Positions 1 to 28,423 of a stretch of 28,423 nt of DNA are shown piece after piece (positions within the stretch are counted from its first letter, which is position 1; the number at the start of each line of letters is the position of its first letter). The stretch is from a virus. Lineage: Duplodnaviria; Caudoviricetes. A program made the position numbers and the translations under genes. The stretch is taken from IMG/VR virus record IMGVR_UViG_3300030372_001082, positions 1-28,423 of that record; one strand, 5' to 3'. The notes beneath the pieces were generated by a model that was given only the letters and a program-made list of their open reading frames with translations, was not told the origin of the DNA and searched no databases.

Positions 1-99
1 TCTAATGTTTAATTCTCTTTCTTCTTCTTTGCTTAAATCTAATACTACACAATCTATTTCTGTATGCTTTAATGCTTTGCATATTTTATAACGCTGATG
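1..99. repeat. Terminal direct repeat, copy 1 (circular assembly overlap)
   Basis: Identical to 28325-28423; the ParB-like ORF reads in frame across the join. Confidence 0.95.
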
Positions 100-258
100 T
101 CCACCAATTATAGTCATATCTTTATTAACAATAATAGGATCAACTAATCCAAATCGTTCTATAGACTTTTTTAAGTCATTATATTGTTTCGTACTAATCT
201 GTCTAGGATTATACGTTGCAGGTTTTAATTTATTTATTTTTATTGATTCTATTTTCAT
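1..258 (-). CDS. ParB/Srx-like N-terminal domain protein, 5' part (continues across the circular junction to 27995; 195 aa in total)
   Basis: Manual translation from ATG 258: MKIESIKINKLKPATYNPRQISTKQYNDLKKSIERFGLVDPIIVNKDMTIIGGHQRYKICKAL...; YNPR, FG.VDPIIV and GGHQR are ParB-N motifs. Missed by the ORF track. Confidence 0.9.
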   Translation of the reverse strand, partial: MKIESIKINKLKPATYNPRQISTKQYNDLKKSIERFGLVDPIIVNKDMTIIGGHQRYKICKALKHTEIDCVVLDLSKEEERELNIR

Positions 259-2724: not shown

Positions 2725-2837
2725 CTATAAAATTTATAAATTATATAACTAATAAATGGTGAAGAAAATAATAGTGTTATAATACTAATATGCGGTTCAC
2801 CGCAGATACCTAATATGTGTTTTATTATTTCCATCAT
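2721..2837 (-). CDS. Small hydrophobic protein (38 aa)
   Basis: MMEIIKHILGICGEPHISIITLLFSSPFISYIIYKFYR; ATGA overlaps at both ends. Confidence 0.55.
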   Translation of the reverse strand: MMEIIKHILGICGEPHISIITLLFSSPFISYIIYKFYR

Positions 2838-3466
2838 ATACAACTTTCTAAAATTTCTTTACATAATTCATAAGGAACTATGCTTCTTAAATAGTTTCCT
2901 TTTAAACCTTGTGTGCCTGTTTGTGAACCTCTTGGTGCTGGTTGATGATGACAATTTGTGTTACCATTAAAACACATTTCTCTTGGTTTCCAACCTTTTT
3001 GATTAAACCAATCCGCCAAATGATTTGTCCATATATCGGTAGGTTTCATTTTACTATCTTGATACTGACAATAGCAAACAGTTGTTCTTTGTATTCCTTT
3101 TACTACATCTAATTTTCTTAATTTACCTCTTGGGTTTTCTATAAAATAAAAATCAGGTTTAAAATAATTAATTATATCTAATGTCTTTTGTACAATCTTA
3201 ACACCTAGTATAGCTTCTGGTGTTTTTGGTGTATGGTCTTTGTTCCAATGATGACCAATACTAGCAACACTAAAATATGTGCAAGGCGGTGAAGCCCAAA
3301 TAATATCAGGTTTAAATGGAACTTTTGAAACATCAAAATCTAATATATCACAAACATAATCTATTTTGTCAAAATCTTTATAATCTGTTGTAAATGTTTC
3401 CATTCCCATTTCTTCAGCCACCTTGCTAAAACTTCTTGATCCTGCAAATAATTCTAATACTTTCAT
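2834..3466 (-). CDS. DNA cytosine-C5 methyltransferase (short, orphan)
   Basis: Motif I LELFAG, motif IV WASPPC, motif VI IENP. Confidence 0.85.
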   Translation of the reverse strand: MKVLELFAGSRSFSKVAEEMGMETFTTDYKDFDKIDYVCDILDFDVSKVPFKPDIIWASPPCTYFSVASIGHHWNKDHTPKTPEAILGVKIVQKTLDIINYFKPDFYFIENPRGKLRKLDVVKGIQRTTVCYCQYQDSKMKPTDIWTNHLADWFNQKGWKPREMCFNGNTNCHHQPAPRGSQTGTQGLKGNYLRSIVPYELCKEILESCI

Positions 3467-7369: not shown

Positions 7370-7872
7370 AATGAATTGTATTTAATTAGTGGTCTGTATT
7401 TTGTTTTATTATCTTCGTCTTTATAAGCTATAAGCACTTCACGTCTATTATCAGTAACTTTCCAACTTAAATGCACCCAATCAGGATATGTAGGATCTAT
7501 GTATTCTGTAGCATTTCCAAACTCTAATATACATTGGTCAAAGTCTAAATCTAAATCTACAAGCGTTTCATAGATTTTTATATTATCCATTTTGCCACGC
7601 TTAAAGTATTGCAGGTCTACTGCTTCATATCTACAATGTTGTGAATTGCTACTAGAACCAATAGCTTTAGATAAATTAGGACTTCTGTAGCCGCTTGTAA
7701 TTCTCAAAGCACCTAATCTATCACGAATGGTCTGGAGAAAAGCGGCCAGAAGTCTTAACTTGATAATGCCTTCTTTTGTAGGCGAATTATTTATATTTAA
7801 GCGTAATGCAGTTGCACTTCTAGTAAACTCATTAAGCGTAAAATTTTTTGTTAAAAACATTATATCATTCAA
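7366..7872 (-). CDS. Endolysin, peptidase M15A family
   Basis: NFTLNEF..S.TA, ITSGYRS, SQH...AVD, WVHLS zinc-ligand motifs. Confidence 0.85.
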   Translation of the reverse strand: MNDIMFLTKNFTLNEFTRSATALRLNINNSPTKEGIIKLRLLAAFLQTIRDRLGALRITSGYRSPNLSKAIGSSSNSQHCRYEAVDLQYFKRGKMDNIKIYETLVDLDLDFDQCILEFGNATEYIDPTYPDWVHLSWKVTDNRREVLIAYKDEDNKTKYRPLIKYNSL

Positions 7873-8200
7873 ATTTAGTTAAATAAATAGAATCTATTTC
7901 TTTTTGTATGTCTTTTTTTGTAATATCTAACTGCATTAATATATTTCCCTCAAATCTTATTACTTCCTGCTGTTCATCAAATACAATAATAGTAGGCACA
8001 GATTTTATTTTGTGTTTGTCTTTCATATCAAGATCGTGGCATATTACAACATCTGTTTTTTTACAATCTTTTAAAACTGATATATCAAAACTATTATTAC
8101 CATTCCAATCACTATTAAAATGTATTACAGATACTTGCCCAAAACAACTGCCAATACAAAAGAAAAAGAAACCTAAAAATATATATGGAAAATAATTCAT
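7865..8200 (-). CDS. Exported thioredoxin-like-fold protein lacking CxxC
   Basis: Signal peptide, then VIHFNSDWN...IKSVPTIIVF..EVIRFEG. Confidence 0.6.
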   Translation of the reverse strand: MNYFPYIFLGFFFFCIGSCFGQVSVIHFNSDWNGNNSFDISVLKDCKKTDVVICHDLDMKDKHKIKSVPTIIVFDEQQEVIRFEGNILMQLDITKKDIQKEIDSIYLTKFE

Positions 8201-25808: not shown

Positions 25809-26966
25809 TTACAATATATAATACTTGCCACTATGATTTATAGATAGCTTATTTAAGCATAGATAACGTACTGCATCTACCAAGTGGTCATTTACTTTTA
25901 CAGGTACATTTAAAACATCACCATTTTTATCTGTGGCCCATTTGTAGCTTCTAAATTCTTTAATAGCATTAAGACTATCCTTTGTAATGTTTAGCTTATA
26001 TCTACGCATTATATCTATGCCTAAATGTATTCCTGCACCCTTTTTAGCAGGTTTTATATTAAACCCTTGTCTGTATATTTCTTCAATAGATTTAGGTTCT
26101 GCTGAATCGCCTATTATTTCTGTAGTTCTATCTATGCCAAGTTCTTTCATTTTGTTAGCCAGGTCAGTATTAGTTAATCTTTTTTCATATAGCAATTCTC
26201 TAATATATAGACTATCATCTAATTGCCTTACTTCTACTAATGCAGTTGGACTATTAGTAAATCCAAAGTCTAAGCCATAGCCAATCAATCTACCTTGCAC
26301 ATCATCTACCAAATTCCATTGTCTAAAAATCTGTGTACTAACACTACCGATTTCTCCCAATCCATAAACACGCCAATACTCAGGATCAAGGTCTTTTAAT
26401 CTTTCAATCTCTGCTATTGTATCTTTATCTAAAAATGGATTAGCTAAATATGTTGACTTTAAAAATGTGCAATCATCTCTAGTTATTACCTTTTCATATA
26501 TCCAAGAATAAGGATCAGATGGATTATAGTCTAAATATATTTTTCCTGAACATCTTAACGTAAGCTGCACCCAGGATTCAAAATCAAATTCATTTGCCTC
26601 GTTAAGCCATAAATAATCACGTTTACGCCCTCTAATCTTCTGCGGTTGGTCTACACTAATGAACTCTAATAAATTGCCATTAAGCATATAAGACAGTTCA
26701 GACTTATTATGATTAGCTTCATTATATAATTCTAATTCTTTAAGGATAGAAATTACATCACGATATGCAGTACCCTTTAATGCAGGTAATGTCTTTCTGC
26801 ATATTGTAAATACCTTTCCTGTTTCTTCTAAACACTTTACAATAAATAACTGACAAAGCGAATAGGTCTTAGAACTTCGTGTACCCCCTTGTAAACACGT
26901 TATTCGACTATCCGACCTATACGCTTTGTGAAATACATTTGTTGTTTTAATCTTTCCCTGTATCAA
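25809..26966 (-). CDS. terL: Terminase large subunit (PBSX/SPP1-like)
   Basis: Walker A QGGTRSSKT, Walker B WLNEANE, DYNPS, nuclease motifs GLDFGF, DSAEP, DHLVDAVRY. Confidence 0.95.
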   Translation of the reverse strand: MIQGKIKTTNVFHKAYRSDSRITCLQGGTRSSKTYSLCQLFIVKCLEETGKVFTICRKTLPALKGTAYRDVISILKELELYNEANHNKSELSYMLNGNLLEFISVDQPQKIRGRKRDYLWLNEANEFDFESWVQLTLRCSGKIYLDYNPSDPYSWIYEKVITRDDCTFLKSTYLANPFLDKDTIAEIERLKDLDPEYWRVYGLGEIGSVSTQIFRQWNLVDDVQGRLIGYGLDFGFTNSPTALVEVRQLDDSLYIRELLYEKRLTNTDLANKMKELGIDRTTEIIGDSAEPKSIEEIYRQGFNIKPAKKGAGIHLGIDIMRRYKLNITKDSLNAIKEFRSYKWATDKNGDVLNVPVKVNDHLVDAVRYLCLNKLSINHSGKYYIL

Positions 26967-27294
26967 TAACTTCTATTTTAAGTTCAGTTAATGGTTTACC
27001 ACCACTTGTAATATCTAGCTTTTCAGCATATCCTCTATCTTTAGCTTTTGACTTTAGATAGAATATAATACTTGTTTCTTTTCCAGAAGATATGTTTTTT
27101 ATTAATTGTCCTTCTACATAGTCTATCTGTGCTTCTTTAATATCTTCAACTGCTTTTGCAAATTCAGCATCTTCTTTTAAGTATCTATAGTATGTGCTTC
27201 TGCTTATATTACCTGCCTTTTTACAAGCGTGATATATTAGTCCTTGCGTTTCTTGTAACGCTTTTAATAATTTCTCTTTTTTATTCTGTGCCAT
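26947..27294 (-). CDS. terS: Terminase small subunit
   Basis: HTH ACKKAGNISRSTYYRY, IIFYLK.K.K.RGY; directly upstream of terL. Confidence 0.8.
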   Translation of the reverse strand: MAQNKKEKLLKALQETQGLIYHACKKAGNISRSTYYRYLKEDAEFAKAVEDIKEAQIDYVEGQLIKNISSGKETSIIFYLKSKAKDRGYAEKLDITSGGKPLTELKIEVIDTGKD

Positions 27295-27321
27295 TTGTAT
27301 TATTTAATCTATTATAATTAG

Positions 27322-27393
27322 AGCGAGTAAGTGGATTCGAACCCTATCTTTATGCTGGATGCATAACGCTTTAACCAATTAAGCTATACTCGC
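27322..27393 (-). tRNA. Atypical tRNA-Gly(TCC)-like element
   Basis: GCGAGTA-TA-GCTT AATTGGTTA AAGC-G-TTATG CA TCC AG CATAA-AGAT-AGGG TTCGAAT CCACT-TACTCGC-T; perfect acceptor, D and anticodon stems; A33; T-stem one base short; no encoded CCA. Confidence 0.8.
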
Positions 27394-28016
27394 ATTTTTC
27401 CCTTATACATTCCTGCTCCCATTTCTTTAATTTTAGAAAAAGGCATTACAGGAACAGTTAAATTTTTTTCTTTTGTTTTGTCTATAAAATATATATACTT
27501 TAATTGATAACCTTCTAGTCTTTCAGAATTTGTAAAATCTCTTTTACTTGTTCCATGCTTTGCTATTGTTTCACCACTTTGCAGTTTATATATTTTTGTA
27601 TTTTTTTTTATTCCAATTAATTTAAATCCACTAGCCCTATATATTGTTCCGTCTCCACATTGTGTTCCGTCTGCAAAACTTAAAACCCATTTAATGTGAG
27701 GGGCGTTCTTTTTTAATAATTTCATACTAATTGCTATACATCTGCTTTCTGAATACTTGGGCAATAAGTCACTAAAAGCCATTCTGTTTAATTCTAAAAA
27801 TTCATTCCACTTTGTTCCCTTTACAATTCCTATTACCTTTCTTTTATCAATTGGACAACCGTATGACATTACCCCACCTAATTTTTTGTCTAGAAAACAC
27901 CCAAAATGCAACTGACTATTCATGCAAAACTTTCCTGAATAATGATGTTTTTTAACAAAGTTATTGGCGAACTCTGTTGGTATAACTTTTAGTATTATTT
28001 CTTTTGCTCTGCCCAT
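27384..28016 (-). CDS. mom: Mom-family (GNAT-fold) DNA adenine modification enzyme
   Basis: HHYSGK, ELNRM, SESRCIA, LSFADGTQCGDGTIYRASGF motifs characteristic of Mu Mom homologues. Confidence 0.8.
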   Translation of the reverse strand: MGRAKEIILKVIPTEFANNFVKKHHYSGKFCMNSQLHFGCFLDKKLGGVMSYGCPIDKRKVIGIVKGTKWNEFLELNRMAFSDLLPKYSESRCIAISMKLLKKNAPHIKWVLSFADGTQCGDGTIYRASGFKLIGIKKNTKIYKLQSGETIAKHGTSKRDFTNSERLEGYQLKYIYFIDKTKEKNLTVPVMPFSKIKEMGAGMYKGKMRV

Positions 28017-28423
28017 TGTGATACTAATAAATATAAAGCATTTCCGTTACTATTTTTGTTTCCAAATGTTTCAATATAATTAAATTCTTCTATTTTTTTA
28101 ATGTCATTTAATTTATTTTTGATATAATCTACTTGCCTATCTGCTAAGACAAAAGTTATATTTTGAATAGGTTTCTTTTCACTATCATCTAAACTAAAGA
28201 CATCGTCTAACTTATCTATATTTAAATCTAAATCAATATGCTTAAAACCCCAATCAGTAAGTTCATCAATATCGAATTCATTAGCTAGAATATCCATATC
28301 AAAATCACCTGTGTTCTTGTTTAGTCTAATGTTTAATTCTCTTTCTTCTTCTTTGCTTAAATCTAATACTACACAATCTATTTCTGTATGCTTTAATGCT
28401 TTGCATATTTTATAACGCTGATG
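27995..28423 (-). CDS. ParB-like protein, 3' part (begins at 258)
   Basis: In frame with 1-258: ...ERELNIRLNKNTGDFDMDILANEFDIDELTDWGF... Confidence 0.85.
   Translation of the reverse strand, partial: HQRYKICKALKHTEIDCVVLDLSKEEERELNIRLNKNTGDFDMDILANEFDIDELTDWGFKHIDLDLNIDKLDDVFSLDDSEKKPIQNITFVLADRQVDYIKNKLNDIKKIEEFNYIETFGNKNSNGNALYLLVSQWAEQKK
28325..28423. repeat. Terminal direct repeat, copy 2
   Basis: Identical to 1-99. Confidence 0.95.

Follow-up and report, generated by a model that had tools for sequence, protein, structure and literature searches.

The window analysed here, the whole stretch of 28,423 bp, is a complete phage genome (100% complete, with direct terminal repeats) that carries a single tRNA gene. 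On its minus strand lie, in this order, a ParB-like gene, mom (27384-28016), a tRNA-Gly(UCC), terS and terL (Table 1). A second DNA-modification enzyme is encoded elsewhere in the genome by a separate C5-type DNA methyltransferase gene (window 2834-3466, minus strand).

Table 1. Features in and around the mom locus, in positions of the window
Feature	Position	Strand	Basis
Direct terminal repeat, 99-bp; splits the ParB-like gene over both record ends	1-99 + 28325-28423		
Terminase large subunit (terL), query for the close-relative controls	25809..26966	(-)	Pfam Terminase_3
Terminase small subunit (terS), downstream border of the variable slot	26947..27294	(-)	PHROG 4044
Non-canonical tRNA-Gly(UCC)-like RNA, predicted glycyl carrier	27321..27393	(-)	ARAGORN, Rfam, pair counts, model R1
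T-arm, four pairs and unpaired A63 (base 27332), no 51-63 pair; family hallmark	27330..27345	(-)	Alignment
Anticodon loop C32 A33 U34 C35 C36 A37 G38; anticodon 27357-27359	27355..27361	(-)	Sequence
mom, Mom-family DNA adenine aminoacyltransferase (GNAT fold; predicted), 210 aa	27384..28016	(-)	Pfam PF25680, PHROG 1384
ParB-like gene, 196 aa once joined over the 99-bp repeat with window 1-258	27995..28423	(-)	PHROG 620

The 210-aa product of mom, taken as Mom-like in the initial annotation, is assigned to this family by an HMM, by sequence and by its predicted fold, all of which agree. Pfam PF25680 (Mom) matches it with an E-value of 2.7e-48 (164.8 bits, against a curated cut-off of 27.1), phmmer aligns it with the Mom protein of phage Mu (8BV8) at E 1e-22, and the top PDB match of its AF2 model (pLDDT 88.6) in Foldseek is again 8BV8 (TM 0.76-0.80; E 1.6e-19, the runner-up having an E-value of 7e-7). 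In addition to family and fold, the two proteins share six active-site residues: H25, Y26, R78, S91, D116 and Y126 of the window Mom correspond to H58, Y59, R111, S124, D149 and Y159 of Mu, and each of them is invariant, together with Q119, in 120 of 120 Mom homologues. The window Mom nevertheless differs from that of Mu: (i) Q119 occupies the place of the essential R151, an equivalence that is approximate across a one-residue alignment gap; (ii) W48, at the dimer interface, is not kept, E15 standing there at a position that varies among homologues; (iii) it has a shorter insertion; and (iv) its gene lies between a ParB-like gene and terS.

The RNA that follows mom is called tRNA-Gly(tcc) by ARAGORN (27321-27393) and is matched by Rfam RF00005 with 47.5 bits (E 1.6e-8) and a gap in the 5' strand of the T-stem, so that both tools support the tRNA reading made from the letters alone. 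It is indeed the genome's only tRNA, and the end of mom (ATG CGA GTA TAG), whose frame runs to 27384, does overlap the first 10 nt of the RNA, which starts at 27393. We considered this 10-nt overlap as a conserved feature and rejected it, because among relatives the RNA starts anywhere from ~100 nt inside the read-through frame up to 27 nt beyond the stop codon, on either strand. Its bases include G1-C72, C2-G71, G3-C70, C35/C36, U73 and C74, with CCA only partly encoded, and therefore contain the set that the glycyl-tRNA synthetase GlyRS reads according to the available part of PMC9976931 (G1-C72, C2-G71, C35, C36 and U73). The D-loop GG and the T-loop UUCGA are intact. The departures from a canonical tRNA that had been pointed out in the initial annotation can all be read from the sequence as well: the anticodon loop has A33 instead of U33 and a possible C32-G38 pair, and the T-arm (AG-GG/UUCGAAU/CC-A-CU) has one pair less than an unbroken five-pair stem. 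Folding of the single sequence (z -2.45) recovers the acceptor and anticodon stems and misses the D- and T-arms. The short T-stem is not an assembly error, since 61 of the 62 distinct relatives have the unpaired A as well. Compensation of codon bias was considered for this gene and rejected: GGA accounts for 151 of the 511 glycine codons of the genome, with no excess.

The window RNA belongs to a family with covarying stems. In an alignment of 45 copies, which are related to one another and from which the structure itself was derived, 99.3% of the cells are paired and double changes occur in 18 of the 21 pairs, above all shuffles and slid controls; many stem pairs are G-U. Eleven positions are invariant: G1, C2, G3, C35, C36, the T-stem A, C70, G71, C72, U73 and C74. 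The T-stem A is present in 45 of 45 rows amid compensatory changes in its flanking pairs, the 32-38 pair is C-G in 35 rows and U-A in 9, and position 34, U33, the D-arm and the T-loop drift across the family. A set of 62 distinct RNAs, picked by the Mom gene alone and parsed geometrically, gave the same picture: all except one have the unpaired A (46 with four pairs and A63, 15 with five pairs and an extra A), and among 57 parsed anticodon loops only 10 are 7-nt loops with U33, 18 have eight bases, closure is C-G in 46 and U-A in 10, and the anticodon is UCC in 50 and ACC in 7. As a baseline, 531 viral tRNAs other than glycine tRNAs, taken without any pattern and called by ARAGORN, which itself favours canonical forms, have U33 in 523 cases (8 without), a five-pair T-stem in 480, and C32-G38 and the bulge in 2 each; neither was found in 130 viral glycine tRNAs, some of which had been selected with a canonical pattern. 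The combination of a covarying acceptor stem with a degenerate U33 and T-stem, put forward for this RNA from a single genome, thus holds for its relatives.

The family also contains reduced and deviant members. Among the 71 distinct copies recovered with a pattern restricted to the T-arm, acceptor and CCA, 31 are 69 nt or shorter and have a reduced D-arm; 69 have CC in the hairpin loop, which the pattern did not require, against 9-15 for GG, AA, UU and GA. Some copies lack the CC anticodon and have an intact acceptor and a bulged T-arm (L010:2683-2748, L011, L016, L523), a lineage with U73 and a UCC anticodon carries G3-U70, the alanine identity pair (L031:3411-3481, L045, L053, L054, L067, L071, L078), and the L028 RNA has C3-G70. 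The missing CC anticodon or the G3-U70 pair makes glycine charging questionable in the first two groups. The covariance model R1, built from the 45 aligned copies, is weak on D-armless forms and does not discriminate below about 60 bits, since canonical tRNA-Gly also scores 30-59 bits with it.

Linkage between Mom and this RNA, as predicted from the window, was found in both directions. Starting from the protein, we took, out of 597 viral loci that encode Mom, the best 80 (59-75% identity). ARAGORN in its default mode reports a tRNA directly behind mom in 34 of them; R1 finds the RNA in 74 at E<=1 and in 72 at E<0.01, 44 of these being in its training set, and the geometric parser added L061 and L074, for a total of 76/80. 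The RNA was not found in the whole records, 92-100% complete, of the other four loci (L015, L024, L025 and L080); these have Mom identities of 59-63% and keep the C-terminal part of the ParB-like protein. Starting from the RNA, a first DNA pattern gave at least 119 viral matches: Mom is encoded in 79 of the 80 loci with full flanks (68 distinct RNAs), the one miss lying at a contig end, and in 35 of the 39 with 300-nt flanks. The T-arm, acceptor and CCA pattern gave at least 120 matches, and Mom lies within 1.5 kb of 75 of the 80 examined; of the misses, three lie no more than 90 nt from a contig end, in one Mom is ~1.3 kb away and one is a Mom-less 19% fragment (L521). By contrast, 80 matches to a control pattern for canonical tRNA-Gly(UCC) were examined, and none of them lay within 2.5 kb of Mom. 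The loci are related, so that all these counts overstate independence.

The same association extends to cellular genomes and to more distant Mom proteins. The first pattern matched 26 sites in cellular genomes, of which 11 are chance matches that have no acceptor stem and 14 of the 15 tRNA-like ones adjoin Mom. Since all 14 bear Bacteroidota labels, the host of the window's phage is likely a Bacteroidota species. The fifteenth, a bulged gene that resembles tRNA-Gly(CCC), comes from an alphaproteobacterial MAG (L280:1467-1538), in whose genome we found no Mom. In L154, a near-identical RNA lies beside a Mom of 31% identity, and in a further Mom subfamily (PF25680 confirmed for L475) the RNA is upstream of the gene (L463, L470, L475, L478, L479, L481, L483, L485, L488, L492, L504, L508, L509). 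Among cultured phages, 16 of the 17 Mom loci examined (of 146 records), Mu included, have no such RNA in a 0.7-2 kb flank, and a blastn search of cultured phages with the RNA yielded 20-nt matches only, the Croceibacter region among them holding no family member. The Psychrobacter phage vB_PmaS_Y8A (OQ059336) has two tandem D-armless copies between mom and terS (L426:3162-3302; about 7786-7926 of OQ059336), both unannotated and both with the bulged A and an encoded CCA.

Close relatives of the window reveal how the pair is gained and lost. Among 80 terminase relatives (81-98% identity), 51 show both the ParB-like and the terS gene, and in this slot the RNA is present in 4 of 4 relatives with Mom and in 0 of 47 without it. 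A fifth RNA match, in L132, is upstream of the ParB-like gene and has Mom adjoining; the five RNA-bearing relatives amount to at most four independent cases, as L004 and L108 have the same RNA sequence. A search over the full length of five Mom-less records, of which three are complete, found no copy of the RNA. In Mom-less relatives homology ends near 28205 and resumes at 27310-27319, just beyond the RNA, and a contig of run X1 skips 27310-28206: Mom and the RNA are lost as one block. Two runs examined for expression cover the flanks of this block but neither mom nor the RNA. The last ~70 codons of the ParB-like gene (27995-28204) are possibly a third part of this module. They are present in 79 of the 80 Mom loci and are swapped together with this Mom subfamily; in the terminase-relative set they occur in 3 of 80 loci, all three with a Mom of the window type, and they are absent from the Mom-less relatives and from the locus with the divergent Mom of L154. 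Other genes, apparently also for DNA modification, fill the slot in L081, L089, L090, L113-L115, L127, L128 and L143, including an ATPase-GNAT pair (L127) and a five-gene cluster (L143). Some Mom-less relatives have in this slot what we take, by eye from the N-termini, to be glycosyltransferase-like and C5-methyltransferase-like ORFs.

The chemistry that had been anticipated for this system, glycine transfer from Gly-tRNA, is published for Mu. As described in the available part of Silva et al. 2026 (PMC13219725), the Mu enzyme takes glycine from Gly-tRNA(Gly) and attaches it to the adenine N6 of double-stranded DNA, the product rearranges to 6-NcmdA and blocks restriction, and the enzyme accepts all three E. 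coli tRNA-Gly isoacceptors. Mu draws on host tRNA-Gly and encodes no such RNA, whereas in the window phage Mom is paired with an RNA of the phage itself. The available parts of PMC13219725 and of the preprint 10.1101/2023.03.24.534169 do not mention a phage-encoded tRNA partner for Mom, the literature searched, with most subscription papers outside its scope, yielded no phage tRNA tied to Mom, and no link appears in the portion of the jumbo-phage review PMC7824862 that was accessible. The use of Gly-tRNA by Mom is therefore already known; the partner RNA encoded by the phage appears to be the new part.

The nearest parallel is found in Staphylococcus aureus where, according to the accessible part of PMC7826273, EF-Tu withholds Gly-tRNA from FmhB by sequestration, which additional tRNA-Gly species with a weak T-stem escape; the same part of that source reports non-proteogenic tRNA-Gly only from staphylococci. 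The staphylococcal NP1-NP3 tRNAs, donors for FmhB, FemA and FemB, resemble the Mom-linked RNAs in serving, as predicted for the latter, a GNAT-fold glycyl transferase, in having an altered T-stem and, with regard to 20 of the 129 Mom-linked copies, in a T-loop TGC. However, they also show differences: (i) NP1-NP3 have an unbroken T-stem in which A-U pairs at 49-65, 50-64 and 51-63 weaken EF-Tu binding, whereas in the Mom-linked RNAs the helix is lost or is interrupted by an unpaired A, and the window RNA, with A49-U65, G50-C64 and no 51-63 pair, does not have the NP-type stem (A49-U65, U50-A64, A51-U63); and (ii) the Mom-linked RNAs are phage-borne, tied to a DNA-modifying enzyme and include D-armless and anticodon-less forms. 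The window RNA is thus a different solution and not a member of the staphylococcal NP lineage. The pairs 49-65, 50-64 and 51-63 set the affinity for EF-Tu, as measured by base-pair swaps and not with a bulge at 63 (PMC3239215, available in part).

Taken together, Mom and the RNA form a genuine pair of enzyme and RNA with strong linkage, in which two known kinds of molecule meet, Mom and non-proteogenic tRNA-Gly. The RNA keeps the bases that GlyRS reads and drifts in those needed for decoding, and the one invariant oddity falls at the T-stem site of EF-Tu. The family co-occurs with Mom in many phages and ordinary tRNA-Gly does not, so the RNA is likely the phage's glycine carrier, and we consider it probable that the window RNA is a dedicated glycyl donor for Mom, kept from EF-Tu. 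The word dedicated is our inference from genomics, as Mu Mom works with any host tRNA-Gly isoacceptor. In the pathway we propose, the RNA would be transcribed with the late ParB-mom-terS unit, or in many relatives from its own promoter, matured by host RNase P, 3' trimming and the CCA-adding enzyme, and charged by host GlyRS; the bulge would weaken binding of the charged RNA by EF-Tu, so that it would be neither sequestered nor spent on the ribosome, and Mom would take its glycine and modify the progeny DNA before packaging. U73 shields Gly-tRNA from the deacylase DTD (PMC9976931, available part), and this protection would matter for an RNA outside EF-Tu. Several observations speak against such a donor: Mu Mom needs no phage RNA, and 4 of the 80 close Mom loci are without it, as are the flanks of the 16 cultured loci mentioned above; a Q stands at the essential R151 of Mu, the activity of the Q119 clade being predicted; and L280 and the fragment L521 carry the RNA with no Mom match.

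The orientation of the RNA bears on a different role. In 52 of the 129 distinct copies (about 40%) it faces mom, and the motif TAnnTTTG, the Bacteroidota -7 element (PMC6847099, accessible part), occurs within 45 nt upstream of 41 of these 52, against 21 of the 77 others and 219 of 8250 random windows. No TAnnTTTG lies within 45 nt of the window RNA; over the whole genome the motif is no more frequent than expected by chance, and a sigma-70 promoter scan was likewise at chance level. Opposed copies, most of them with a promoter motif of their own, would suit a tRNA mimic that binds Mom and restrains it, as a decoy or in the manner of an antitoxin, or else an RNA that regulates mom mRNA by antisense pairing; the tight linkage is explained equally well by such a brake, and some copies have no anticodon. 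Yet a tree of 145 Mom proteins (a quick IQ-TREE with long branches, used for the flips only) shows at least 13 changes of orientation, and the same fold is kept in both orientations, so that antisense pairing is not what is conserved; and a decoy would leave unaccounted for why the identity elements of GlyRS (C35/C36, U73 and G1-C72/C2-G71; PMC9976931, in part) are kept in nearly all copies. We regard this restraining or antisense role as unlikely.

Still less likely is that the RNA is a donor whose oddities evolved against anticodon nucleases or tRNA-modifying toxins, and which still binds EF-Tu and may decode. The anticodon loop is indeed strongly reshaped (the 32-38 pair, A33, eight-base loops, ACC), and TacT, a toxin of Salmonella, acetylates Gly-tRNA(Gly) by way of U73 and G71, as the available part of PMC9976931 describes. 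The sole invariant oddity, however, lies not in the loop but in the T-stem at the EF-Tu site, both U73 and G71 are kept, and the reduced D-arm of 31 of the 71 copies recovered with the T-arm, acceptor and CCA pattern speaks against such an escape.

An ordinary decoding tRNA, topping up glycine for instance while Mom drains the host pool, and placed by synteny, is very improbable, even though ARAGORN and Rfam accept the window copy, its D-loop GG and T-loop UUCGA are intact and tRNA-Gly(UCC) is frequent in phages. Canonical phage tRNA-Gly(UCC) shares with the window RNA the GCG/CGC acceptor end, U73 and the UCC anticodon, but it has a five-pair T-stem and U33, often lies in tRNA clusters and does not adjoin Mom (0/80); the bulge of 61 of 62 family members is found in 2 and a non-U33 base in 8 of the 531 unselected viral tRNAs, few family loops (10/57) are of the 7-nt U33 type, GGA codons are not in excess, and D-armless and anticodon-less copies exist. 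We give equally little credence to a cis-acting or DNA-level element, either a processing signal of the mom-terS mRNA or an integration or recombination site, although the RNA sits on a gene boundary by terS, where a swappable block ends, because it is absent from the 47 relatives whose slot has either other genes or none, occurs on either strand with many G-U pairs and upstream of Mom in a third subfamily, keeps its amino-acid identity bases, and no integrase was matched among the 30 window proteins scanned.

Returning to the glycyl donor, a broader version of it is possible, and we put it forward tentatively, as less likely to be true than false. Such phage tRNA look-alikes could form a widespread private cofactor family for DNA hypermodification, in which the unpaired A blocks EF-Tu and may be the handle for Mom, a Mom of the Q119 type prefers or requires the RNA, and certain lineages are reducing the RNA to a glycyl-carrier minihelix that has no D-arm; the two partners would then be an orthogonal aminoacyl-transfer pair, and the G3-U70 lineage would be a candidate for another amino acid.

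That Mom uses charged tRNA was established only recently, and this tRNA was assumed to come from the host pool, in which Gly-tRNA is tightly bound by EF-Tu. A carrier made by the phage would explain how DNA can be glycylated on a large scale without competing with late protein synthesis. Current tRNA finders overlook many copies of this family, as illustrated by the 34 of 80 loci reported by ARAGORN and by the unannotated copies of vB_PmaS_Y8A, a phage that provides a cultured test system, while L015, L024, L025 and L080 are natural controls for the preference of the enzyme. The bulge is a natural test of the EF-Tu rules, and the RNA a possible orthogonal amino-acid carrier for DNA labelling. 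If the carrier reading is true, a class of phage tRNA genes gains a job outside translation, and non-proteogenic tRNA-Gly is extended beyond the staphylococci.
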